A stretch of 33,400 bases of DNA from Burkholderiales bacterium (lineage in GTDB: Bacteria; Pseudomonadota; Gammaproteobacteria; Burkholderiales; SG8-41): positions 1-33,400 of the forward strand of contig DASRIK010000577.1 in the NCBI GenBank assembly GCA_035650035.1, given 5' to 3'. The translations under genes and the position numbers were made by a program. Positions 7,427 to 25,022 of the stretch are shown in pieces (within the stretch, counting starts at the first letter, position 1; each line of letters opens with the position of its first letter). The notes below the pieces were generated by a model, which saw only the letters and a program-made list of their open reading frames with translations, was not told the origin of the DNA and did not search any database.

Positions 7427-8644
7427 TCAGATCACGTTCCGCTCACGGAATCGTTCTATCTCCGTCGCACTGTAGCCGATCTCTTCCAGAACGCTTTCAG
7501 TGTGCTGCCCGAGCGCCGGCGCAACGCCGATGCGGGGCGGCGTCTCCGAAAAATGCCAGGGTGAGCCGTGCACCTTCAGTTTCTTGTCGTACTTCGGGTA
7601 TTCGACTTCCGTCACGTAACCGTTCGCGAGGACATCGGGATCGTTCGACGCTTCGAGGAGCGTGTTGATGGGCGCCGAAACAACGTCGGCTTTGCGCAGG
7701 GCCTCGACCCATTTGTCCCGCGGGCCTGTCGCGAACAATTGATCCAGTTTTTTGAGAAGCGCCTGGCGCTGCTCGTCCGACGCGATCACGACGCCCAGAT
7801 CGCCGAACCCGGCGCTCACCAGCGTGTCGTAAAAGCCCAGCGACGACATCGCGGCCTTCCACTTGGCATTGCCCACGAGCTGGAACACCATCGGCTTGCC
7901 ATTGATGTCGTTGAAGCTTGCGCTCATTCCAGGGCGTTCAGGCGTTCCGGTGATGCGCGCCTGACCTGTAACCGGATTGCGGTTGCGCCACATCGCGGTG
8001 GTGAGCGTCCAGCCCATGAGCCGGATTTGTCCGCCGAGCAGCGAGCAGTCGACCTTCTGGCCGATGCCGTGCGTGCGGGCGCAATGCAGCGCTGCAAGCA
8101 TGCCGCCGAACGCCAGGATCGCGCACGTCTCGTCGGCCACTGACACGATGCCCGTTTTGAGCGGCTGGCCCGGCGAGGAGTACGCTTCGGCGATACCGCC
8201 CAGCGCCTGCGCCATCGAATCGGTACCCGGCAGGCTCGCATGCGGCCCTTTCGGACCGTACGCCGAAATCGAGACGTACACGAGCTTCGGGTTGATCTTC
8301 TTCAGGTCCTCATAGCCGAAGCCATTCTTCTCGGCGGCGCCGGGGCGAAAGTTCTGGCCGAAGATGTCCGCGCGGGCCACGAGTTTGTACAGGATCTCGC
8401 GCGCTTCGGCGGATTTCATGTTGAGCGTGACGCTCTTCACGCCACGGTTGTTCGTTTCGAAAAAGATGCTTGGGAAACCGGGATAGATGCTGGAGGCGCG
8501 GGAGTTGTCGCCCTTGCCCGGCACTTCGATCTTGATCACTTCGGCGCCCAGATCGGCCATGAGCATGTAAGGAACGGTGCCGGCCTGTGCGGTGGAGCAG
8601 GCGATAACTTTGACGCCGTCGAGCGGACCACGTGGCTTTGCCAT
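7427..8644 (-). CDS. CaiB/BaiF family-III CoA-transferase
   Basis: 405 aa from ATG 8644 (SD GGAGG). The N-terminus 'GPLDGVKVIACSTAQAGTVPYMLMADLGAEVIKIE' is the classic family-III signature. It lies 13 nt upstream of tctB on the same strand. Confidence 0.9.
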   Translation of the reverse strand: MAKPRGPLDGVKVIACSTAQAGTVPYMLMADLGAEVIKIEVPGKGDNSRASSIYPGFPSIFFETNNRGVKSVTLNMKSAEAREILYKLVARADIFGQNFRPGAAEKNGFGYEDLKKINPKLVYVSISAYGPKGPHASLPGTDSMAQALGGIAEAYSSPGQPLKTGIVSVADETCAILAFGGMLAALHCARTHGIGQKVDCSLLGGQIRLMGWTLTTAMWRNRNPVTGQARITGTPERPGMSASFNDINGKPMVFQLVGNAKWKAAMSSLGFYDTLVSAGFGDLGVVIASDEQRQALLKKLDQLFATGPRDKWVEALRKADVVSAPINTLLEASNDPDVLANGYVTEVEYPKYDKKLKVHGSPWHFSETPPRIGVAPALGQHTESVLEEIGYSATEIERFRERNVI

Positions 8645-8662
8645 GGCGATATTCCTCCAATC

Positions 8663-8686
8663 CTCCGAAGCGCGACTATAGCGTGT
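8663..8686. repeat. 24-nt direct repeat, copy 2 (CTCCGAAGCGCGACTATAGCGTGT)
   Basis: 23/24 identical to 7397..7420. On the minus strand it reads ACACGCTATAGTCGCGCTTCGGAG, contains a TATAGT -10-like hexamer, and ends 19 nt upstream of ATG 8644. Confidence 0.85.
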
Positions 8687-8727
8687 CGGCGGCAACGTTA
8701 GACACATGCCGCCTGGTTTCCTCTAAG

Positions 8728-9213
8728 ATGCGCGAGATGCAACGCGCGACAAGGCTTCTCACTCTATGCGCCGTGGCAACATGCACGTTCGGACCGGGCA
8801 TGGTCCCGGCGGAGTCGGGCTCTCTGGCTATATCGCAAAGCCGTGGGGCCCTTCTTCGCGTCGGGCACGAGGGATTGGACGTTGACCGCGCGCTCAAGCG
8901 CTATTCCGGGATGATCACTGCGCTGGGTGAACCCGACGAGCAGGGACGTGTCTACTCGTTCCAGGTGAAGCCGCTGCCGGCGGGTTCGGGGTACGTGCCA
9001 AACGAGCTGCGCGGCTGGCGCCTCACGCTACTCGCAGGCCAGCGGTTCGCGAGCGTGTTCGAAGTGCAGAGCAATACCGAAGCCGAGATCACCGTCACGC
9101 CGCGTGATGGGCCATTGAACGGCATAGCGGTGCGCGATCTCTTTGTCGTCGAGCAGATCGCCGTCGAGCGTCGGCAGCCTGCTGACACAGCGGACTCGAA
9201 ATCGCAGTTGTGA
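8728..9213 (+). CDS. hypothetical secreted protein
   Basis: From ATG 8728 (or 8737) the product begins MREMQRATRLLTLCAVATCTFGPGMVPAES, a signal-peptide-like N-terminus. The remaining ~130 aa have no recognisable motif. No clear SD. The stop overlaps the next ORF's GTG (GTGA at 9210-9213). Confidence 0.5.
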   Translation: MREMQRATRLLTLCAVATCTFGPGMVPAESGSLAISQSRGALLRVGHEGLDVDRALKRYSGMITALGEPDEQGRVYSFQVKPLPAGSGYVPNELRGWRLTLLAGQRFASVFEVQSNTEAEITVTPRDGPLNGIAVRDLFVVEQIAVERRQPADTADSKSQL

Positions 9214-9218
9214 CGCGG

Positions 9219-9704
9219 ATGAAGCTCGTTGCAGCGCTTGCATTGTCGGTTGCATTGGTCGACATATCGAGCGCAGCCGCGCAAGGCAGCCGCATTCCCG
9301 CCGATGTGGTCGACGCATTTCATGCGGCCCTCCGCGCCAGGAACACCGCCGCCGCCTTATCACTGCTCGACCGCGGTCTCGTAGTGTTCGAGTTCGGCAC
9401 TGTCGACCCGACTGTCGAGGCTTACGCGTTCCAGCATCTGCCGTTCGACATGGACGTCGCCGCAGCGACTCAGTGGAAGCTCGAAACGCGGCGGGTGGGC
9501 GGTGAAGGCAGCGAGCGGTGGGTGCTGAGCACATACCGTGTTACGGGCAAGCACCGCGACGGCAGCCCCATCGATCTCACCACCCTGGAAACAGTGATCC
9601 TGCGCCGGAGCAGCGATCTCTTCCGCATCGTCCACTTCCACTGGTCCACGAACGATCCTGCTTTCCAGGCGCGCGCGCAGCAACAGCGTTCTCAGGGCAA
9701 GTAG
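9219..9704 (+). CDS. NTF2-like (SnoaL/DUF4440-type) protein with signal peptide
   Basis: MKLVAALALSVALVDISSAAAQ is a signal peptide. 'VVDAFHAALRARNTAAALSLLDRGLVVFE...' and the C-terminal 'FRIVHFHWS' fit the DUF4440/SnoaL-like pattern. The alternative GTG 9210 is coupled to the upstream stop. Confidence 0.6.
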   Translation: MKLVAALALSVALVDISSAAAQGSRIPADVVDAFHAALRARNTAAALSLLDRGLVVFEFGTVDPTVEAYAFQHLPFDMDVAAATQWKLETRRVGGEGSERWVLSTYRVTGKHRDGSPIDLTTLETVILRRSSDLFRIVHFHWSTNDPAFQARAQQQRSQGK

Positions 9705-9710
9705 ACGCAT

Positions 9711-11165
9711 TCACCCCACGATCGGCTGAGCGAGTATCCACAGACTCAACGTCGTGTAAGCCACCATCAGCACGACCATCGGAATCTGGCTTACGACCGC
9801 GGCGTAGCGGCTGCCGAATACGCGTAAGCCTTCGGTGTGTGCAAGCACAACCGCGATAACGTGGCCGATCACGATGATCGTGACAGCGCTATACCAGAAA
9901 ACGTATGGACTCAGGATGCCCAGATCCACTTTATATTGGGCGGTGCCGAAGAGGTCCCACCCCCAACCGAAGGGATCGGAGACGAGCGGAATGATGAACT
10001 GGCCCGCGGTCACCAACAGAGAGAAATAGTGCGACAAGTGGTATGCGACAGCGATCGGAACGAGCGTCAGCACGAAGGAACAGGCGGCTTTGCTCGCGCT
10101 CACATCGCGCCGTGCGAGTCGCACCATCACCCAGCTCGTGAGCCAGAAAACCGCCACAAACGCCAGCGCGAAGCCGACGAGTGCAGTCGTCTCGATCACT
10201 TGTGTCTCATCGAATCCCCACTCCGAAAGTTCGAACAGCGCTGTCGATGCCATGCGCGACTGATGCACCACCGTTATCATGCGCTGGTTCAGTGCTGTTT
10301 CGAGAAAACCGTCGAACGTGACGGACGCGAGCATCAGCAGCACGAACGCGAGGAAGGACATGCTGACCGGTTGCCGCGTGATCAGGCCGGCGCCGGGGAA
10401 CCGCACGTTGAGCTCGCGTGGCGTAGCGGCGAGTGGCGCAAAGCGCGCGAGTATGCCGAACACAATCGAGAACGCCTCGCCTTTGGCAAGCCATACCTGT
10501 CGACCAAAGAGCAGCATGCCGGTCCAGGTGACGCCCGCATACGCGAGCATCGCGCACGCAAGATAGCGCGGCACATCGTTCCGCTGCCATATCAGCTCCG
10601 CCCAGGCAAAACATAGAAAGAGCGCCACGCCCGGCCACACATCCAGCCACGGCGGATAAGGCAGTCGCGGCGCACGCTGTCTACCGCTGTTGAGGCGCGC
10701 GAAGCCGCGCTCGCCCCACTCGAAGATCGTGCGCAGGGGGTTCACGAGCGCCCACAGGTCGCCGCCCAACGCGCAGATGAATGCGAGGCCAACCCACCAC
10801 ACCACCCAGATCATCGTTGGAGCGAGATTGACGTATGGATCCTGCGCGCCGAGCAAGCCTGCAAACGCCGTCAGAACGAACACTACGACAGCCAGAATAC
10901 GTACAGCGCCGACCGTCACCGGATGCGCGATCCAGCGCACCGCCGCGAATCGCAGCAGATCGAACTGCGGCCATCCCGCGGCGATGCTTCGCTCGCGCAC
11001 GAACAGTGCGATCACCACGAACGTGAGCACGATTGTTGCGCCAGCTCCCGTGAGCCAGAGCCATAGTGGCAGTGGCAGATCGAACCGCTGACCGAAGCCA
11101 TGCGCTGCCGCGGGGAGGGACCACGATGTCAGCGCAATCGCCGCGACGAGCCGCGCCACACTCAC
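9711..11165 (-). CDS. polytopic inner-membrane protein (about 12 hydrophobic segments), unknown function
   Basis: The proposed GTG 11165 overlaps the stop of the upstream cupredoxin-like gene (GTGA). The product begins VSVARLVAAIALTSWSLPAAAHG. It contains many TM-length hydrophobic stretches. The track ORF extension to 11891 was rejected. Confidence 0.7.
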   Translation of the reverse strand: MSVARLVAAIALTSWSLPAAAHGFGQRFDLPLPLWLWLTGAGATIVLTFVVIALFVRERSIAAGWPQFDLLRFAAVRWIAHPVTVGAVRILAVVVFVLTAFAGLLGAQDPYVNLAPTMIWVVWWVGLAFICALGGDLWALVNPLRTIFEWGERGFARLNSGRQRAPRLPYPPWLDVWPGVALFLCFAWAELIWQRNDVPRYLACAMLAYAGVTWTGMLLFGRQVWLAKGEAFSIVFGILARFAPLAATPRELNVRFPGAGLITRQPVSMSFLAFVLLMLASVTFDGFLETALNQRMITVVHQSRMASTALFELSEWGFDETQVIETTALVGFALAFVAVFWLTSWVMVRLARRDVSASKAACSFVLTLVPIAVAYHLSHYFSLLVTAGQFIIPLVSDPFGWGWDLFGTAQYKVDLGILSPYVFWYSAVTIIVIGHVIAVVLAHTEGLRVFGSRYAAVVSQIPMVVLMVAYTTLSLWILAQPIVG

Positions 11166-11554
11166 GGATGCACTTCGACATAGAGGACCGCTTTGCCGTG
11201 CCGGTAGCCCTTGACGTGCTCCGACACCGAAAAGCGACCGGCGAGATGCGCTTTGAACGACATGACCGCCGGTGACTGCGGCGTGACCCGGTGCTCTACG
11301 TCGTAGCCGTGTAAATGGAGCGACATCGCTCTGTCGCTCGACCAGCGCAGCTCCACGTGATCGCCTTTTTTGACCCGGATCGTGTTGTTGGCCGTAACCA
11401 CTCGTCCATTGGCGATTGCGAGCTCGAATATCTTCGACGGGGGCTGCGGTACCTCCGTGGCTTCGGCTGCCCACAGAAGCCGTGTCGGCGCGATGCAAAG
11501 AGCGATGCCGAGGATCGTTGCGTGGGCTGCATGAAGGTAGAAGCGCTGATGCAT
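11162..11554 (-). CDS. periplasmic cupredoxin-fold-like protein (no Cys ligand)
   Basis: 130 aa with signal peptide MHQRFYLHAAHATILGIALCIAPTRLLWA. 'IRVKKGDHVELRWSSDRAMSLHLHGYDVEHRV...AGRFSVSEHVKGYRHGKAVLYVEV' resembles a cupredoxin beta-sandwich with His residues, but the mature part has no Cys. Confidence 0.6.
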   Translation of the reverse strand: MHQRFYLHAAHATILGIALCIAPTRLLWAAEATEVPQPPSKIFELAIANGRVVTANNTIRVKKGDHVELRWSSDRAMSLHLHGYDVEHRVTPQSPAVMSFKAHLAGRFSVSEHVKGYRHGKAVLYVEVHP

Positions 11555-11566
11555 GCCGTGAGGAAC

Positions 11567-11605
11567 AGTAAAACGCGAGAGGCCGGGCAGCGCCCGGCCT
11601 CTCGC
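11567..11605 (-). terminator. rho-independent terminator downstream of the beta-propeller gene
   Basis: A perfect 13-bp stem pairs 11575-11587 with 11593-11605 (GCGAGAGGCCGGG / CCCGGCCTCTCGC), with the 5-nt loop CAGCG. On the minus strand it is followed by GTTTTACTGTT. It starts 30 nt after stop 11635. Confidence 0.7.
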
Positions 11606-11634
11606 ATGCGCGTGCGGCCGATCTACGTGGCTGC

Positions 11635-13617
11635 TCAGTCGTTCTTACGCCGTTCCGAGTTTGGCTGATGCACCTCGATGCGGCCATGGTTGAAGGCACC
11701 GCCGGCGCTGTATGTGCAACCGGCGGTGCAGACGACGTGAAATACGTCAGGTGCGGCTTGTTTGCCTTTGCCGTTGTCTTGCACGCAAGCGCGGAATGTA
11801 GCGGCAGCCCCGTTGAAAGTGCCTTTTCCTTCCACTTGCACCGAATTCGCCGTGGGCAGGACGGAGCCGCACTCGTCGCGGACGCTGCCAAGGAAGGTCA
11901 GATCGTCCACTCGAATACGCACGCCGGCCGCATGGTCCTTGAGTTGCAGCTTTCCTTCGATGCCGTCGCGCTTCCGTTGGGCGTGGAACTCGAGCTGGAT
12001 TTTATTGTTGCCGCGACCGCTGCCCGTCTCGAGGAATCCATCAGCCTTCGCTACGCGACGCATGCACGGGTTGTACTCAGGATTCGTCAGCTCGAGGATT
12101 CTTAACCCACCCTGATTCCAGCCGGTGTACAGGAGACAGTTCGCCGCGTCGTACCTCGGATCGGGCCGCGTGAAATCGTTCTCGCCGGCACGCGTGGTCG
12201 CGACGTTGGGTGCTTTGTAATACGCGATCTCCCTGGGATGCGTCGGGTCGCGATAATCGACCACTCGAATACCTTGATTCGCGCCCGCGTAAAACACGAG
12301 GCGCATGTTCAGACGATCGTCGAAGCCGATGTAATGAATCATGCCGCCGTTGATCTGCTCGCTCAGCACCCTGACGGCGTTATCGGGATCGTTCACATCG
12401 GGCTTGAACGTGCTCACGACACGAGGACGCAGCTCGTCGCTGATGTCGATGAGCCGGCCGAAGGTGCGCTGTCTCAGGTGTACGTTCCATTCGCCGTCGA
12501 GACCCGCTCCGGATTCGTCGGTGGTGATGATGTACTCCTTGCCATTCTCATGGATGACGTATTCGGTCGCGTGCGAGGCCGCTGTCGAGCCGTCGTCGAA
12601 GTCCGGATCGAAAAAATGATACGCGGGATCGTTCTTCGGATCGCACCAGGAGAGAAAGCTGATATAGCGGAGCTGAGGATTCGGGCGTCGGAAGGCGACG
12701 TCTGAGGAGTCGAGAATCAGAAGGCCGTTCGCGCACCGTCCCGAGCCGTCCGCAGGAAAACCGCCGAGAGCGTTGTTGCCGCCATAGAGCGCGAGGTAAA
12801 GTCGCGTGCCCGCCTGATTTGTGCTGACGTCGTGGAAATTGCGTGTAGGAACCAGGCGATCCCGGATCTCCGGCGGGAGTTGATTGCGGTTCCAGTTCAT
12901 CAATTGCTTGGGATTTTGCTTGTCCGTGAGGTCCATCACGTGCAGATCGATGCGATTCGGATTCTGCTGAATCGTCTGACCGCCAAACGGAACGCCGTAA
13001 TACGTGTTGGTGTCGGGCGTCAGCCATCCATCGTGATTACCGGATGCCGTATTGGTCGTCGCGAGGAGCCGAGGCTGCAGGCAATCGCCCGAGATATCGT
13101 AGATATCGAACGGATTCGTGCCGTTCGGACCGAAATCCTTGAAGGCACCGACGAGGATGTTCTGCTGGATTTCGAGCGCCGAATACGCGCGCACCATCGC
13201 CGGCGTTCTCAGCGTTTGCACCCACACAGGCTTTGAAGGCACCCGCATATCGATGACGGACGTGCCCGTGGTAGGAAGGGACAGGTTCGATGGGTCGCGC
13301 ATGCTGGCGTATGCGCACAAACCGATCAGCTGAACGTCGCCGAAGCTCCCGCGTAAGCCAAGCGGCTCGTGGCCGACCTGTCGCAAGCCACATGATTGCC
13401 CTTGAAAGCCGCCGGGGACATCCCGCTCGGCGACAGTGAGCCCACCCTGAAGACTGGTCTCGGGCCGATCGCCAGGCTCGGGCACGCAGAAGCTCTCGGC
13501 CCGCGCTGTATGTGCAACAAACGAAGACAGTAAAACGGTTGCGAATGCCAACGACAACAGCTTGGTGCGACGACAAAACGTGCTCCTGGATCGAATCATG
13601 GTGGAATCCCTGATCAT
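11635..13617 (-). CDS. secreted LVIVD-repeat-like beta-propeller protein with C-terminal beta-rich domain
   Basis: 660 aa. The alternative ATG 13599 has a better SD and gives MIRSRSTFCRRTKLLSLAFATVLLSSFVAHTARA. There are seven recurring 'hhDhSdPxxP'-type blade motifs (VIDMRVPSKP, IYDISGDCLQP, VMDLTDKQNP, LILDSSDVAFRRPNP, LIDISDELRP, VVDYRDPTHP, ILELTNPEYNP). The C-terminal ~140 aa contain 'FRACVQDNGKGKQAAPDVFHVV...GRIEVHQ'. Confidence 0.7.
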   Translation of the reverse strand: MIRDSTMIRSRSTFCRRTKLLSLAFATVLLSSFVAHTARAESFCVPEPGDRPETSLQGGLTVAERDVPGGFQGQSCGLRQVGHEPLGLRGSFGDVQLIGLCAYASMRDPSNLSLPTTGTSVIDMRVPSKPVWVQTLRTPAMVRAYSALEIQQNILVGAFKDFGPNGTNPFDIYDISGDCLQPRLLATTNTASGNHDGWLTPDTNTYYGVPFGGQTIQQNPNRIDLHVMDLTDKQNPKQLMNWNRNQLPPEIRDRLVPTRNFHDVSTNQAGTRLYLALYGGNNALGGFPADGSGRCANGLLILDSSDVAFRRPNPQLRYISFLSWCDPKNDPAYHFFDPDFDDGSTAASHATEYVIHENGKEYIITTDESGAGLDGEWNVHLRQRTFGRLIDISDELRPRVVSTFKPDVNDPDNAVRVLSEQINGGMIHYIGFDDRLNMRLVFYAGANQGIRVVDYRDPTHPREIAYYKAPNVATTRAGENDFTRPDPRYDAANCLLYTGWNQGGLRILELTNPEYNPCMRRVAKADGFLETGSGRGNNKIQLEFHAQRKRDGIEGKLQLKDHAAGVRIRVDDLTFLGSVRDECGSVLPTANSVQVEGKGTFNGAAATFRACVQDNGKGKQAAPDVFHVVCTAGCTYSAGGAFNHGRIEVHQPNSERRKND

Positions 13618-13791
13618 TGGGTTTGTCTGGGGTGTGTCTTATCTGTCATGACTCACGAAAGTGAGACCAGCGTGTTGTTGATAACGCGCACTGCGCCGCC
13701 CCCATGCGGCCTGAATACTATATAGGCGTTCGTTATCGGCCACAATGAGGCCCGAGAGAATCGCGGAGATGGACCGTATTAGAATCAACGC

Positions 13792-15306
13792 GTGAAGCGC
13801 GTCGAGAAAACAGTCTTCATCAGCTACCGGCACACGAACGAGCCGTGGGCGCTCGCGATCTATCAGAATCTGACGAGCCATGGTTACGATGTGTTCATGG
13901 ACTTCATGCGGCTTGCCAGTGGCGACTTCGAGGCGGTGATCCTGGGTAACCTCCGCGCGCGCGCGCATTTCGTCGTGCTGCTTACGCCTTCGGCGCTGGA
14001 GCGCTGTGACAACCCGGGCGATTTCCTGCGACTGGAGATCGAAACCGCGCTGGACTCGCGGCGCAACATCGTGCCGCTCATGCTCGAGGGCTTCAACTTC
14101 GGAACCCCGAGCATCGCGAGCAAGCTCACGGGAAAGCTGGCCGTACTCAAGCAATACAACGGCCTCGATGTTCCGGTGGGATATTTCCCGGAAGCGATGT
14201 CGCGCCTGCGCGATCGATACCTGAACGTCGCACTGGAGGCTGTGCTGCATCCGCCGTCCGTCGTCGCCGAGCAGGCAGCCAGGCAGGATCAGCGCGCTGC
14301 GAGCAACGCCCCTCCTGTATCGGAGCAAGAGCTTGCCGCGCAGCAGTGGTTCGAGCGCGGATTCGACGCGGTCGATACCGGCGAGCAGTTGCGCTGCTAT
14401 ACCGAGGCAATCCGTCTGAAGCCGGATTTCGCGGACGCGTACAACAATCGCGGCGTAACGCGTAAAGCTCTGGGCGATATGGCAGGCGCGATTCAGGACT
14501 ACATGGAAGCCCTTCGTCTCGCCCCGCAAATGGACGAGGCGTACAACAACCGCGCCACTGCGCGCTCGCTGACTGGTGATCTCGACGGCGCGTTGCAGGA
14601 CTACACCGAAGCCATTCGTCTGAATCCGCAGAACGCGCTCGCTTACTACAATCGCGGCAACGCTTACCTGGCGAGAGGCGAGCTGCCTGCCGCAATAGGA
14701 GACTTTACTGAAGGGATCCGCCTGAAGCCGGACGATTCGGACAGCTATCACAACCGCGCCATCGCGCGGAGTACCGGCGGAGATCTCGAGGGAGCGCTGG
14801 CGGATTATTCTGAAGCGATCCGTTTGAAGCCGGGCAGCGCCGAGACTTACTACGGTCGGGGCAAAGTGCGCAAAGCCGCAGGTGACGTAGACGGGGCGAT
14901 AAACGATTACGGAGAAGCTATCGGCCTGAAGCCGGATTATCCGAACGCCTACATCAGCAGAGGCATCGCACGGCGAACGGCAGGGGACATCGACGGAGCG
15001 CTCGAGGACTATACGGAAGCCATTCGCCTCCAGCCTGACGACAGCGCAGCGTACTACACGCGAGGCATCGCACGCATGATCAAAGGCGACATCGACGGCG
15101 CGTTACAGGACTGCACACAGTCCATATGTCTGCAGCCGGACGATCCTGATGCTTTCTATCTGCGCGCGTTGTTGTGGGAGACGGCAGAAAATCCCGGCGC
15201 GGCGATTGCGGACCTCGAAGCTTATCTGAAGATGGCGAATGGGGCGCCTGCGACACAGCAAGCAGAGGTGAAGTCGAAAATCCGTACGCTGAGAAAAAAG
15301 ATCTGA
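13792..15306 (+). CDS. TIR domain - tetratricopeptide repeat fusion protein
   Basis: 504 aa with a GTG start. TIR-like N-terminal motifs are 'KTVFISYRHTNEPWALAIYQNLTSHGYDVFMD', 'HFVVLLTPSALERC' and 'DFLRLEIETAL'. aa 183-488 hold nine 34-aa TPRs with consensus 'AYYNRGxAxxxxGDxDGALxDYxEAIRLxPDxxx'. There is no P-loop. Confidence 0.85.
   Translation: MKRVEKTVFISYRHTNEPWALAIYQNLTSHGYDVFMDFMRLASGDFEAVILGNLRARAHFVVLLTPSALERCDNPGDFLRLEIETALDSRRNIVPLMLEGFNFGTPSIASKLTGKLAVLKQYNGLDVPVGYFPEAMSRLRDRYLNVALEAVLHPPSVVAEQAARQDQRAASNAPPVSEQELAAQQWFERGFDAVDTGEQLRCYTEAIRLKPDFADAYNNRGVTRKALGDMAGAIQDYMEALRLAPQMDEAYNNRATARSLTGDLDGALQDYTEAIRLNPQNALAYYNRGNAYLARGELPAAIGDFTEGIRLKPDDSDSYHNRAIARSTGGDLEGALADYSEAIRLKPGSAETYYGRGKVRKAAGDVDGAINDYGEAIGLKPDYPNAYISRGIARRTAGDIDGALEDYTEAIRLQPDDSAAYYTRGIARMIKGDIDGALQDCTQSICLQPDDPDAFYLRALLWETAENPGAAIADLEAYLKMANGAPATQQAEVKSKIRTLRKKI
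14338..15255 (+). repeat. coding tandem repeat, 9 x 102 bp (TPR units)
   Basis: The exact 34-codon period is anchored at Y217, Y251, Y285, Y319, Y353, Y387, Y421 and F455. A recurring DNA string GAAGC(N)ATTCGTCTGAA(G/T)CCG encodes 'EAIRLKP'. Confidence 0.85.
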
Positions 15307-16286
15307 TGGCTATTCTTGTACTCGCTCGCATTGTCGGGGCGCTGAGCCTGCTCTCGTCCGCGGCGCATGCGGCCCAAGATCCCGCCGCTCTCTATCCAGC
15401 CAGGCCCGTGCGTCTCGTCGTGCCCTTCACGCCGGGCGCATCGAGCGACATCATTGCGCGTCTCCTGGGACAGAAGCTCGGCGAGGCGCTCGGCCAGCAG
15501 TTCATCGTGGACAACCGTCCGGGTGCCGGCGGTGGTGTCGGCGCGGAGACGGTCGCGCGTGCGGCACCCGACGGCTATACGCTGATGATCACCAACCCGG
15601 GCCCCGCGATCAACAACATCCTTCTGCGGAAGAAACCGAGTTACACGCTGAGCGATTTTGCGGCGATCGTCTACATCGGCTCCGCACCGATGATCGCTGT
15701 GGCGAACGTCAAATTACCGGCAAACGACATGAAGGAGCTCATCGCGTATGCGAAAGCGAACCCGGGTAAGGTGACGTGGGGCTCGTCGGGCAGCGGCAGC
15801 AATCCCCACGCCGCGCTCGAACAGTTGAAAGCGGCAACGGGCGTCGACATCACGCACGTGCCGTATAAAGGAACAGCGCCTGCGCTGACCGACACCGTCG
15901 GTGGTCAGATCGATGGGCTCTACACGACGACCATATCGGCAGAGAGCGTGATCAAAAGCGGCCGCGCGAAAGTGCTGGGCGTCGCAGGCCCTAAGCGCGC
16001 GGCCGTCCTTCCCAATGTGCCGACACTCGCGGAGCAGGGCATCAGAGGCGCCGATAATCTTCTGTGGGTCGGGCTCGTCACGACTGCCAAAGTTCCACGC
16101 GCGATCATCGAGAGACTCAACGGCGAAGCGAATCGAATCCTGCGCACGCCGGAAGTAAAACAGCGCTTCGAGCAGCTCGGTATCGATATCGAAGGCGGTA
16201 CGGCGGCGCATTTCGAGCAGTTCATCCGGGCGCAGGCGGAGAGCTTGAGGGCGTTGATCAAGGCAGGGGTGTTGCCGGTGGAGTGA
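15306..16286 (+). CDS. Bug-family (TctC-like) periplasmic substrate-binding protein, orphan
   Basis: ATG 15306 shares its A with the TGA (15304-15306) of the TIR-TPR gene. The signal peptide is MAILVLARIVGALSLLSSAAHA, followed by 'YPARPVRLVVPFTPGASSDIIARLL' (Bug signature). Confidence 0.9.
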   Translation: MAILVLARIVGALSLLSSAAHAAQDPAALYPARPVRLVVPFTPGASSDIIARLLGQKLGEALGQQFIVDNRPGAGGGVGAETVARAAPDGYTLMITNPGPAINNILLRKKPSYTLSDFAAIVYIGSAPMIAVANVKLPANDMKELIAYAKANPGKVTWGSSGSGSNPHAALEQLKAATGVDITHVPYKGTAPALTDTVGGQIDGLYTTTISAESVIKSGRAKVLGVAGPKRAAVLPNVPTLAEQGIRGADNLLWVGLVTTAKVPRAIIERLNGEANRILRTPEVKQRFEQLGIDIEGGTAAHFEQFIRAQAESLRALIKAGVLPVE

Positions 16287-16348: not shown

Positions 16349-18061
16349 GTGATGACGGACAAATCGAAGAACATATCCCGGCCGCAGGACTACAAGCTCA
16401 TCGTCGAAAAGGACGTGAAGATTTCGATGCGCGACGGCGCGATCCTGTACGCCGACGTGCTGCGGCCGGACACGGGCGGCGAGCGCGTTCCGGCGATCAT
16501 GAACATCGGGCCGTATCAGAAGGACCGCCTGTGGATCCCGCCCGCCGATCTCGAGGAAGAAGCGAACCCGTATCTCGCATGGGAGACCGGGAACCCGATG
16601 TACTGGTGTCCGCGCGGATATGCGCTCGTACGCGTCGATTCGCGCGGCTCGGGCAAATCACCCGGTCAGTCGGACCCGAGCTCCTATGCCGAAGCCGTCG
16701 ATTTCTACGATGCGATCGAATGGATCGCGAAGCGCGAGTGGTGCTCGGGCAATATTGGCACGCTGGGCGTTTCGTATCACGCCAACTGCCAGTGGCGCGT
16801 CGCGAAGCTCCAGCCGCCGTCGCTCAAGGCGATCATTCCGTGGGAAGGCCGCGCGGATCTCTATCGCGACCAGACGTTCCACGGCGGCATTTACGCGATG
16901 GGTTTCTTCGCGAACTGGGTCGCGACCAACATGGCGCATCACATCATGGGCCGCGCGCGAAGCTATAACCCCGGCGCTTTCAACAACAACATGGTCTGGA
17001 ACTGGGTGAACCAGAATCTCGATTCCGAATTCTGGCGTCTGCGCAGCGCCGACTGGTCGAAGACGACGGTGGCGCTTTACAGCGTCGGCAACTGGACCGG
17101 CATGGGACTGCATCTGCGCGGCAACATCGAAGGGTTCGTGAATGCCGCGTCGAAGCACAAGAAGCTGCGCGTCCACAGCGGAACGCACTTTCACCCGTTT
17201 CATTCCGAGGAAGGCCGCCTCGATCAGCTGCGGTTTTTCGACCAGTGGCTGAAAGGAAAGGACACCGGAATCATGGATGAGCCGCCGGTGAAGCTCATGA
17301 TCCGGACCGGCGGCGGCAATGCGAGCACCTACAAGTTCCGCTTCGAGAACGAGTGGCCGCTCGCGCGGACGCAATGGACGAAGCTGTATCTCAAGGTCAA
17401 TGCGAAGGAGCAGAGCGGGAGCGGCGACGCGGAAGGCGAGCTTACGAATACGCTGCCGCGCGAGACCGGAAGCTCCACGTATTCCGCGAGCCCGCCTTCG
17501 CACGCGGGTGTGAGCTCGTCAGCGCCATCGAACGCGGCCGGGAGCGTGGACCGCACGGGAATCTCCTTCATCAGCGCGCCGCTCACCGAGGATACCGAAA
17601 TCACGGGTCCTGTCGTCCTCGTGCTCTGGCTATCGAGCACTTCGGAAGACGCCGACATTTTTACAACGATCCGCAATATCGGTCCTGACGGTAAGGACGT
17701 CTGGGAAGAAGGCCAGCAAGGCCACACCGATTACGTACCGGTCGCGAAAGGCTGGCTGCGCGCGTCGCACCGCAAGCTCGATCCCGAGAAGTCGCTGCCG
17801 TATCGTCCCTATCACGTGCACAACGAGCGCCAGTGGCTCTCGCCCGGCGAGATCGTCGAATGCCATGTGGAGATCTGGCCGACCTGCATGGTGTTCAGGA
17901 AAGGGCACCGGATCCGGCTCGATGTGCAGCCGCGCGATGGCGTTGGCTCGTCGGTTTATCGCCATTACCACGCGGACTACAACATCGGCGCGATGAACAC
18001 GATCCACGCGGGCGGAGACAAGGCGTCGTACCTGATGCTTCCGGTCATACCGGTCAGTTAG
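16349..18061 (+). CDS. CocE/NonD family alpha/beta hydrolase (S15 X-Pro dipeptidyl-peptidase-like)
   Basis: 570 aa (GTG 16349 or ATG 16352). Motifs are 'MRDGAILYADVLRP', 'YALVRVDSRGSGKSPG', the nucleophile elbow 'GTLGVSYHA', and a C-terminal beta-sandwich region 'ITGPVVLVLWLSSTSEDADIF'. Confidence 0.85.
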   Translation: MMTDKSKNISRPQDYKLIVEKDVKISMRDGAILYADVLRPDTGGERVPAIMNIGPYQKDRLWIPPADLEEEANPYLAWETGNPMYWCPRGYALVRVDSRGSGKSPGQSDPSSYAEAVDFYDAIEWIAKREWCSGNIGTLGVSYHANCQWRVAKLQPPSLKAIIPWEGRADLYRDQTFHGGIYAMGFFANWVATNMAHHIMGRARSYNPGAFNNNMVWNWVNQNLDSEFWRLRSADWSKTTVALYSVGNWTGMGLHLRGNIEGFVNAASKHKKLRVHSGTHFHPFHSEEGRLDQLRFFDQWLKGKDTGIMDEPPVKLMIRTGGGNASTYKFRFENEWPLARTQWTKLYLKVNAKEQSGSGDAEGELTNTLPRETGSSTYSASPPSHAGVSSSAPSNAAGSVDRTGISFISAPLTEDTEITGPVVLVLWLSSTSEDADIFTTIRNIGPDGKDVWEEGQQGHTDYVPVAKGWLRASHRKLDPEKSLPYRPYHVHNERQWLSPGEIVECHVEIWPTCMVFRKGHRIRLDVQPRDGVGSSVYRHYHADYNIGAMNTIHAGGDKASYLMLPVIPVS

Positions 18062-23867: not shown

Positions 23868-24584
23868 TCAAGATCGTCGCAATCGTGGGGTCGCGCGCTT
23901 CTCCCGCTCGATTTTCGGTGTCGGCTGGCCGGACCACGTCATTCGGTACGCGCCGCCCCGTCGAACGTTCGCGACGACTGCGGGCCTGAAGCACGCGAGA
24001 TTCGTGCCGCGCGGCCGGCGTGTGCTCGGATAGATGATGCCCACCGAGCCTTTTTCCATGAGCCGCGCGGCGAGGCGCTGAGAAGGCGCGTAGCTCGACG
24101 GGTCTACGCATGACTTGAATCGAGGATCTCTTCTGATGTCGTGGAACTCGTTCGTGAAATCGGCGAGGAGCGCCTCGTAGGTGACGCTGTCCTCGAAGTA
24201 GCCGATCTCCCGATACTCGACGCTCTTGTGAAAAGCCACTTCCGCGAGCGCCGTCTCTTCCTCGAACGAGCAGTACCACGCGCCGCGCTCGGGGCCGTTG
24301 AAGCGGCTGCCTTGCGGATGCGCATACGTGAACGCTGCGTTGACGAGGCCGGCGTTGGGCACGCCGAAGACAAGCTCGTCGACACCGATGCCGGGCAGCA
24401 GACCGCGCTGGCCGCGCAGCCGCTCGTTGGTGGCGTTGTCCAGCTCGAAAAGATCCGCAAGATGCGCATCGTCCTCCGAGATCCCCGTGAGGACCGAATC
24501 TTCCCGCATGGCAAAGCGCGACGGCAGCAGACGGTACGTGTCGAACTGCCGCAGTCGGGTCGTGCGCGGAAGCGGCGCGCTCAC
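23868..24584 (-). CDS. RES-domain toxin (NAD+-targeting type II toxin family)
   Basis: 238 aa. 'HPQGSRFNGPERGAWYCSFEEETALAEVAFH' supplies the conserved R and E. 'SVGIIYPSTRRPRGTNLACF' supplies the conserved S. It starts 9 nt downstream of the antitoxin gene. Confidence 0.9.
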   Translation of the reverse strand: MSAPLPRTTRLRQFDTYRLLPSRFAMREDSVLTGISEDDAHLADLFELDNATNERLRGQRGLLPGIGVDELVFGVPNAGLVNAAFTYAHPQGSRFNGPERGAWYCSFEEETALAEVAFHKSVEYREIGYFEDSVTYEALLADFTNEFHDIRRDPRFKSCVDPSSYAPSQRLAARLMEKGSVGIIYPSTRRPRGTNLACFRPAVVANVRRGGAYRMTWSGQPTPKIEREKRATPRLRRS

Positions 24585-24593
24585 CGAGGTTCC

Positions 24594-25022
24594 CTAGCCG
24601 CCGCGGCGTGCGTCGAGGAGCTTACGCACGGTCTGCATCGCGACGAGCCCGCCGCCGATCATGTATGCGAGCGGGGTCCCGCCACCAAAGATCGTGTTCG
24701 TATTCGGGAGCTTCACCCACTGGTCGGCGAGTTTCTCGCCATAGAGAATGTGCAGCGCCTTGTAGATCCCGGTGAGATAGGAAATGCGCATGATGCGATC
24801 GACGTCGAGCACGCGATCCGGATTCTTCTTCCAGTCGTAGTAGGCGCTGCTCGAGAGTCCCCCAAGCAGCTCGCGTGCGTCCTCGTCGCGGATCTTCCAT
24901 CGCTCGATCATGCGGAAGAAGCCGCGCAGCGCCGAGCGCGACAGGCGTTCACGCTCGCTTTTCGAGCTGAGATCGGCGATGCGAGGCAGCTCGAAGCTGC
25001 TGGAAGGATAGGCAAGCCCCAC
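24594..25022 (-). CDS. Xre-like antitoxin with C-terminal DUF2384 (MbcA/ParS-type) toxin-binding domain
   Basis: 142 aa. GTG 25022 is preceded by SD AGGAG (8 nt). The C-terminus 'IFGGGTPLAYMIGGGLVAMQTVRKLLDARRGG' is the typical DUF2384 ending. Confidence 0.85.
   Translation of the reverse strand: MGLAYPSSSFELPRIADLSSKSERERLSRSALRGFFRMIERWKIRDEDARELLGGLSSSAYYDWKKNPDRVLDVDRIMRISYLTGIYKALHILYGEKLADQWVKLPNTNTIFGGGTPLAYMIGGGLVAMQTVRKLLDARRGG

Follow-up and report, generated by a model that had tools for sequence, protein, structure and literature searches.

A family of single-chain TIR-TPR proteins with a SARM1-like TIR domain, proposed as NAD+-cleaving sensor-effectors

Proteins that carry a TIR domain and TPRs in a single chain have already been connected with immunity against phages. 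The 'TIR-II' system of E. coli is a single TIR and TPR protein with antiphage activity that acts alone (Nat Commun 2024, PMC11350192). In the same study, none of the 12 systems retained defence after mutation of the conserved residues of the TIR active site for cleavage of nicotinamide adenine dinucleotide (NAD+). About 70% of the homologues of TIR-II were devoid of an ATPase, TIR-II yielded no escape phages, and the authors describe it as the commonest and most widely distributed among the TIR systems of their survey (PMC11350192). Here we describe a gene of this architecture, located at 13792-15306 on the + strand of a stretch of 33,400 nucleotides from a Burkholderiales bacterium (assembly GCA_035650035.1, contig DASRIK010000577.1, positions 1 to 33,400; hereafter, the window), together with the family of proteins to which its product belongs. 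We estimate at roughly 50% the probability that this product is a ligand-gated, cytoplasmic, single-chain NAD+-cleaving enzyme (NADase) that serves as both sensor and effector, likely in defence or abortive infection. An earlier note on this DNA had presented the bare TIR-TPR arrangement as lying outside the characterised systems, a claim contradicted both by the antiphage activity of TIR-II (PMC11350192) and by a survey in which the TIR plus TPR combination is listed (PMC7075850). Given the published antiphage precedent, a proven defence role would extend a known class and not found a new one. The protein is an uncharacterised addition to that class, which draws attention for its SARM1-like TIR domain and for a candidate TPR sensor that is unusually regular and diversifying.

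The TIR domain and the repeat array

The gene encodes a protein of 504 aa, with a GTG start and a TGA stop according to the open reading frame (ORF) list and its translation, in which a TIR_2 domain, a conserved helical linker, nine TPRs and a C-terminal cap follow one another in this order. The start codon is right, because the N-terminus agrees with that of many homologues (MxRIEKTVF...), and an ENA contig encodes the protein with 100% identity and an unchanged gene call, the gene being placed there at 8137-9651 and TctC at 9651-10631. The TIR domain, of the SARM1 type as argued below, spans aa 6-143 (13807-14220, + strand), as delimited by Pfam TIR_2, a PDB sequence search and the secondary structure of an AlphaFold2 (AF2) model. 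The bacterial TIR hallmarks that the earlier note had recognised in aa 6-140 are borne out: Pfam TIR_2 (PF13676), which is present in all close homologues, matches aa 8-106 with 51.1 bits against a cut-off of 28, the three quoted motifs are found (VFISYRH, aa 8-14; HFVVLLTPSAL, 59-69; DFLRLEIETAL, 77-87), and the matches obtained in the PDB are the TIR domains of SARM1 and TIR-1.

The full-length AF2 model reached a predicted local distance difference test score (pLDDT) of 92.9 and a predicted template modelling score of 0.87; in the TIR region the pLDDT is mostly 82-92 and goes down to 67 at aa 41-50. The elements of this region are betaA (aa 7-11), alphaA (14-29), betaB (33-36), alphaB (43-56), betaC (59-64), alphaC (78-88), betaD (92-97), alphaD (106-121) and alphaE (129-143), and from their order the N-terminus is predicted to have a TIR/flavodoxin-like fold. 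When the full-length model was submitted to Foldseek, the top matches were the TPR domain of OGT and designed consensus TPR proteins (root-mean-square deviation of 1.7 Å for the latter), a result swamped by TPR proteins and uninformative on the TIR domain. The model from a second AF2 run, restricted to aa 1-193 and based on an alignment of 12 sequences, was of poor quality (pLDDT 52), and its top Foldseek matches, SARM1 TIRs followed by plant TIRs with low TM-scores, were not relied on.

Sequence comparison with proteins of known structure gave a clearer answer on the TIR domain. A phmmer search with aa 1-179 against all PDB chains retrieved solely the TIR domains of SARM1 and C. elegans TIR-1 (E 1e-15), followed by noise. 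A family profile built from 12 sequences matched the same SARM1 and TIR-1 domains in the whole PDB with E 1e-24 to 1e-20 over positions 8-139, and no other solved TIR, either bacterial, plant or Toll-like, at E<=1. A 145-column profile assigned 92 bits to C. elegans TIR-1 and 75 bits to human SARM1, and 23 bits to two unrelated bacterial TIR_2 domains that adjoin family members. By BLASTP, the window protein is 33% identical to the human SARM1 TIR over 122 aa, with other family members reaching up to 40%. Judged from the profile scores, the domain is best classed as SARM1-type, nearer to SARM1 than to other TIR groups. Bacterial homologues of SARM1 were reported as not found in a 2020 survey of TIR proteins (PMC7075850). 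Since SARM1 falls within a mainly bacterial clade in a 2026 TIR atlas (PMC13142454), the general bacterial affinity of its TIR domain was already known.

The residue proposed earlier as occupying the position of the catalytic glutamate, E82, is encoded by the GAG codon at 14035-14037 (+ strand) and was identified by reading the sequence and by alignment with SARM1. It falls on SARM1 E642 when the phmmer alignment is counted with the 7knq numbering, and it is invariant in the relatives compared (55 out of 55 and 85 out of 85, 140 together). The remaining equivalents are Y12, R13 and H14 for Y568, R569 and R570 of SARM1, D37 for D594, G44 for G601, F46 for F603 and F78 for W638, all of which we take to be pocket and catalytic residues of SARM1. 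Within the set of 85 relatives, the invariant or nearly invariant residues are E82, F9, S11, Y12, R13, D33, D37, G44, F46, H59 and D77. On this alignment, the TIR domain is probably an NAD+-cleaving enzyme.

The helical linker (aa 144-180, 14221-14331, + strand) is recognised by its conserved columns and by an AF2 helix at 157-171, and it measures about 37-45 aa, varying with the end chosen for the TIR domain. The near-invariant columns of this region are N145, L148, H153, P154, S156, L181 and E188, the family motifs LNVxLxAVLHPxS ... ELTAQxWFERG start or finish within the linker, and TIR-only paralogues (183-197 aa) terminate at about its end. The nine TPRs (aa 181-486, 14332-15249, + strand) follow an exact period of 34 aa with no insertions or deletions, mirrored in the DNA by a period of 102 nt; repeats 2-8 share about 49% mutual identity, and Pfam TPR families match the array with E-values down to 1e-55. 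The array is closed by a capping helix (aa 487-504, 15250-15303, + strand; AF2 helix 487-503), and the conserved tail that includes it, with the motif A[IV][AE]D..xYL, is present in only a subset of the family.

No Walker A motif was found in the protein by a regular expression search, and no NTPase family by Pfam, NCBIfam or PADLOC; NCBIfam and PADLOC added nothing but generic TPR models and partial TIR matches. Thus, the linker of about 45 aa, the nine exact 34-aa repeats without insertions (in register from aa 181 to 486) and the absence of an NTPase module, all of them read earlier from the sequence, stand as described. A cryptic NTPase in the linker was ruled out, since this segment is too short and contains no P-loop. 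Fusion to a SAVED, STING, cyclic nucleotide monophosphate-binding or CARF sensor was not found either, TIR_2 and TPR being the only families detected in the protein, and the PADLOC SAVED_TIR match spans the TIR portion alone (aa 6-68).

Family variation and a possible mechanism

A word-indexed search returned more than 7,000 matches, the best 120 of which are nearly all proteins of 370-750 aa with PF13676 and TPRs, 50-64% identical. When a profile of TIR domain plus linker was scanned with HMMER against 1.84 billion representatives, 1,081 clusters were obtained at E<=1e-30 and 5,428 at E<=1e-10, the 1,081 clusters (50% identity) being a lower bound on the size of the family. In GTDB, with one genome per species and 185,579 species genomes, 269 stretches encode relatives according to the patterns used, and the taxonomy and locus comparisons given here rest on the best 80 of these 269 stretches. 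Most of the 80 come from Acidobacteriota (Acidobacteriaceae, Terracidiphilus, Korobacteraceae and Bryobacterales), and the remainder from Paraburkholderia, Caballeronia, Variovorax, Chloroflexota, Bacteroidota and several Gammaproteobacteria; outside Acidobacteriota the distribution is patchy. Carriers include Paraburkholderia caribensis, Caballeronia telluris LMG 22936 and Variovorax sp. J22P240. The family is abundant in poorly studied soil phyla. The mean identity over TIR domain and linker is about 75%. The identity of the TIR domain between phyla (70-83%) nearly equals that within Acidobacteriota (75%), and lateral transfer is therefore indicated. One stretch binned as Bryobacteraceae (Acidobacteriota; L005, 1-2449) is 98% identical to the window over 2449 bp, and its label is probably a binning error; homologues of the genes flanking the TIR-TPR gene in the window are named Burkholderiales or Casimicrobiaceae.

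The variation of the repeats follows a defined pattern. Protein lengths in the family step by 34 aa, with repeat counts of 2-17, and the consensus derived from 517 repeats is AxxNRGxAxxxKGDLxGAIxDYxEAIRLKPDxA, from which the scaffold departs little. In the same 517 repeats, entropy is maximal at five repeat positions that share a face of helix A (1, 4, 8, 11 and 12), presumably the equivalents of canonical TPR positions 2, 5, 9, 12 and 13, the ligand-binding face. The sensor role that the earlier note had assigned to the TPRs gains support from this concentration of variability on the predicted binding surface of helix A. A near-consensus TPR scaffold with one variable face is, in addition, a natural example of a designable binding scaffold.

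Tandem paralogues were observed as well, four in one locus and two in each of five other loci; the four, in a Terriglobales metagenome-assembled genome (MAG; L046, 10001-18163), are 436-638 aa long and share one orientation. Copies reduced to TIR plus linker (183-197 aa) are present at L044 9402-9953, L034 9402-9953 and L016 10001-10594, in two loci directly upstream of a full-length TIR-TPR gene, and could be decoys, regulators or decay products. At the other extreme, a homologue of 746 aa (P0014, on a 390-kb ENA contig) has about 200 extra aa C-terminal of the TPRs, with no obvious TPR character.

We propose that E82 may be the catalytic residue of the SARM1-type TIR domain, which would work either as an NAD+ glycohydrolase or as an ADP-ribosyl cyclase, and that the superhelix of nine TPRs may be the sensor, whose concave, hypervariable helix A face would bind a protein or peptide. 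The conserved helical linker would couple this sensor to the TIR domain. At rest, the TIR would be inactive, either because it is monomeric or because it is restrained by the linker and the TPRs. The trigger would be the binding of a ligand, most plausibly a protein from a phage or other invader, which would lift the inhibition or gather the TIRs into composite TIR-TIR active sites; NAD+ would then be consumed and growth would stop, as in abortive infection. If this mechanism is true, few immune-type receptors would be simpler: the repeats that sense the target would be linked directly to the enzyme that destroys NAD+, and no ATPase would serve as a switch.

The TIR domain is the nearest bacterial relative of SARM1 found by these searches and could, for this reason, shed light on where the axon-death enzyme of animals came from as well as on the gating of TIR domains by repeats. 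A further suggestion, which we make tentatively and regard as doubtful, is that this soil-bacterial family could be the closest prokaryotic lineage to the TIR acquired by animals as SARM1, with the same logic of helical repeats in cis gating a TIR NADase and no NTPase. Should this be true, the family would provide a minimal NTPase-free pattern-recognition receptor, whose concave TPR face diversifies after its targets, and a tractable bacterial model of the autoinhibition and activation of SARM1.

Genomic context and the question of a defence role

In the window, the TIR-TPR gene lies between a divergent gene for a secreted protein of 660 aa with no Pfam match (11635-13617, - strand) and a gene for a TctC/Bug-family solute-binding protein assigned by Pfam (15306-16286, + strand). 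A 174-bp intergenic region (13618-13791), shared with the 660-aa gene, forms the left edge of the inserted segment and contains no match to the sigma-70 consensus. Syntenic relatives were found through homologues of the 660-aa protein and of the downstream TctC. A contig of 36.7 kb, with the order SnoaL - 484 aa - 130 aa - 648 aa - TctC - S15 - Usp - TctC - luciferase ... RES - Xre - TctC, equals the window gene for gene, but only 161 bp separate its 648-aa gene, the counterpart of the 660-aa gene, from TctC, with no TIR-TPR gene between them; its TctC is 86% identical to that of the window. A second contig likewise has no TIR-TPR gene, with 92% identity for the 648-aa protein and 87% for TctC. 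The TctC orthologues P0392 and P0394 directly adjoin the 648-aa gene in these relatives, with gaps of 161-232 bp. Since two syntenic relatives do not have the gene at this junction, the TIR-TPR gene was inserted as a single accessory gene, at a site that is variable, as the earlier note had suspected for an accessory insertion. The GC content at third codon positions is 0.72 for the TIR-TPR gene vs 0.76-0.81 for its neighbours, the 660-aa gene being also at 0.72. Direct or inverted repeats, tRNA genes and integrases that might mark the ends of the insertion were searched for, and none were found.

In two further relatives the junction is occupied by other genes: a phage-integrase fragment upstream of a 651-aa gene in one (L084, 652-936), and an HNH gene with an 83-aa gene before TctC in the other (contig of P0393, JGI 3300041965, 1296-1667). 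The 660-aa gene, whose homologues are called 'post-COAP-1 domain-containing protein' in some sources, belongs to a trio with no Pfam match (9711-13617, - strand) that also includes genes for 130 aa and about 484 aa, the latter two of which appear fused into one ORF of 726 aa in the mechanical ORF list. The synteny of the trio is kept in several contigs from soil metagenomes. On the other side, TctC is followed by an S15-family peptidase/hydrolase gene assigned by Pfam (16349-18061), and the neighbours in the window are in general metabolic or transport genes (five TctC, TctA, a CoA-transferase, the S15 hydrolase and a luciferase-like oxygenase). At 23868-25022 (- strand), a gene for an Xre/MbcA/ParS-like antitoxin of 142 aa (24594-25022) is followed directly downstream by one for a RES-domain toxin (23868-24584), a pair that is retained in the syntenic relative with no TIR-TPR gene. 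RES toxins also attack NAD+, and the window therefore has, at a distance of about 8.5 kb from the TIR gene, another module directed at NAD+.

A number of results weigh against the proposed sensor-effector and its role in defence. ORF clustering of the 80 loci, based on a crude calling of the longest non-overlapping ORFs in high-GC DNA, revealed no conserved neighbour, the commonest cluster being a housekeeping one present in 7 of 80, and the Pfam-annotated neighbourhoods of family members are unrelated to each other and mostly housekeeping or metabolic. For the TIR-TPR protein itself, PADLOC (2023) gave weak partial TIR and TPR matches alone, and for the 262 ORFs within two genes of family members its matches were scattered and non-recurrent. 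Searches of 50,697 phage records and of 2.9 million viral contigs yielded no copy of the family, and matches in the plasmid collection are confined to Paraburkholderia megareplicons, two of them full-length, in P. caribensis records of 1.9-2.0 Mb, and one weak and partial. In the window, the gene is translationally coupled to that of the solute-binding protein, since its stop codon has one base in common with the ATG of the TctC gene that follows (TGATG, 15304-15308, + strand). Finally, the window copy breaks the >90% consensus of the family at three sites in or near the pocket (R14H, W78F and R81L), which correspond to R570, W638 and K641 of SARM1.

The association of homologues with defence islands, which had been set as a test of the defence reading, appeared weak, with no conserved neighbour and with sporadic PADLOC matches when compared to a distal control. 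The families matched by PADLOC were 53 and 54 for the 262 flanking ORFs vs 20 for the 131 ORFs of the distal control, counts that are inflated by single proteins matching several related models and that include DnaG false positives; as the output consists of families and not of proteins, the enrichment is gauged only roughly. The flanking matches comprise two ThsB-like TIRs, a TIR-STAND protein, PDC-S35, PDC-S41, MzaA, a Shedu-like protein and SAVED-HNH-like nucleases, and when the ten longest flanking ORFs were re-examined, the TIR-STAND protein of Variovorax alone was assigned. Some loci do pair a family member with a TIR-STAND protein or another TIR gene. In Variovorax sp. J22P240 (L080, 4669-9309), a protein of 1546 aa with TIR_2, an NPHP3_N (NACHT-like) NTPase and the PADLOC STAND_TPR model is encoded immediately upstream of the family member, and in an Anaerolineales MAG (L055, 10549-11397) an unrelated TIR_2 protein of 282 aa (96 bits against Pfam TIR_2) is encoded directly downstream.

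Housekeeping-like neighbourhoods and a family absent from phages and mobile plasmids would also suit an endogenous regulator linked to NAD+, outside immunity, whose repeats sense a cellular state or a partner, for instance stress, a damaged complex or a protein with a bound metabolite, as in neuronal SARM1, and whose TIR lowers NAD+ or makes ADP-ribose or cyclic ADP-ribose (cADPR), leading to dormancy or programmed death with no invader involved. The SARM1-type TIR, the high conservation of TIR and linker, at about 75% mean identity, and the co-transcription of the window gene with a transport and hydrolase operon all fit such a regulator. Nevertheless, we consider it rather unlikely, because the gene is accessory, being missing from two syntenic relatives, because relatives are encoded in only 269 stretches among the species genomes searched with the patterns used, and because the hypervariable face, the shifts in repeat number and the tandem paralogues suit changing targets over a fixed partner.

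The search for partner genes bears on a second alternative, a Thoeris-type signal synthase in which the TPRs would sense infection, the TIR would make a cADPR isomer or related messenger and the effector would be encoded elsewhere in the genome. Many bacterial TIRs make signals, cADPR is made by SARM1 too, and TPR proteins do act in TIR signalling, as with BcTir/BcTpr and the Thoeris ThsI with a TPR domain. However, no conserved effector gene was found within 10 kb in 77 loci, and the commonest cluster remains at 7 of 80, while known Thoeris systems are operonic; around the TIR-TPR gene of the window, whose neighbours are TctC and the secreted protein, no Thoeris-type operon with a ThsA-type or other messenger-activated effector was found. 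In addition, a 2025 systematic survey of TIR signalling systems put standalone TIR proteins outside its scope, excluding them as likely NAD+ depleters. We regard this scheme as improbable.

The three substitutions at conserved pocket positions of the window copy could further be taken as a sign of a weapon or recognition module directed against bacteria, eukaryotic grazers or hosts, or of a non-catalytic TIR scaffold of the Tcp type, all the more as TIR and TPR are both protein-interaction modules and as soil bacteria encounter amoebae and fungi. Such a function seems highly improbable, since the protein begins with betaA of the TIR and has no signal peptide, secretion-associated domain or neighbour of that kind, and since the glutamate and the pocket residues, invariant across the family, speak for catalysis. 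A secreted virulence effector was ruled out as well, there being no signal peptide and the context not fitting.

Returning to the ligand-gated sensor-effector, the data establish the domain identity, the alignment of the catalytic residue, the variability pattern, the accessory status and the lateral spread. The enzymatic activity, the nature of the ligand, activation by oligomerisation and, with an apparently weak defence-island association, a function in defence or abortive infection are inferred. From the overall interpretation given in the earlier note, the TIR identity of the N-terminus, the catalytic glutamate, the lack of an NTPase and the insertion stood, while the defence association and the claimed novelty were not supported.

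Comparison with known systems

TIR-II and the present family are alike in having TIR and TPR in one protein, with no conserved partner gene next to the family members, and they are likened here by architecture only. They differ in that TIR-II was reported also in Caudoviricetes, whereas the phage and viral-contig collections searched contained no copy of the TIR-TPR family. Several C-terminal TPRs after an N-terminal TIR are also characteristic of the 'Group 6' proteins (Toshchakov and Neuwald, 2020, PMC7075850), but these are actinobacterial, longer than 700 aa and without the Box 1/2 consensus (PMC7075850), whereas the members of the TIR-TPR family have a canonical Box 1 (VFISYR) and a SARM1-like TIR.

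The systems in which TIR and TPRs cooperate against phage as separate products, BcTir/BcTpr and Thoeris ThsI with a TPR domain, differ in that the TPR protein has a gene of its own and serves as effector or as receptor of the messenger, not as a fused sensor, and no separate partner of this kind is conserved next to members of the TIR-TPR family. The TIR-STAND proteins (Avs with TIR, TIR-NLR and bacterial NACHT proteins) share with the family an N-terminal TIR and a C-terminal sensor of helical repeats, often TPRs. However, they contain a STAND NTPase that drives oligomerisation, whereas in the window protein there is none, and about 37 aa lie between the TIR and TPR1.

With regard to the TIR domain, SARM1 and TIR-1 are by far the closest among the TIRs of known structure (33-40% identity, 75-92 bits); the catalytic glutamate and the glycine and phenylalanine of the BB-loop align, and alpha-helical repeats and TIR are found in one chain with no NTPase. 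The arrangement differs, SARM1 being ARM-SAM-SAM-TIR with a C-terminal TIR and an octameric ring formed by the SAM domains, whereas in the TIR-TPR family the TIR is N-terminal, there is no SAM and the repeats are TPRs and not ARM. Allosteric sensing of nicotinamide mononucleotide and NAD+ by the repeats is known for SARM1 only. For the proposed mechanism, the best functional analogy is offered by DSR2 (defence-associated sirtuin 2), which differs in having a SIR2 effector, a solenoid not made of TPRs, a large tetrameric assembly and a location in defence islands. DSR2 is a single protein with no NTPase, in which an NADase head is joined to an alpha-solenoid sensor, and a structural protein of the phage is bound directly by this sensor (PMC11850899).

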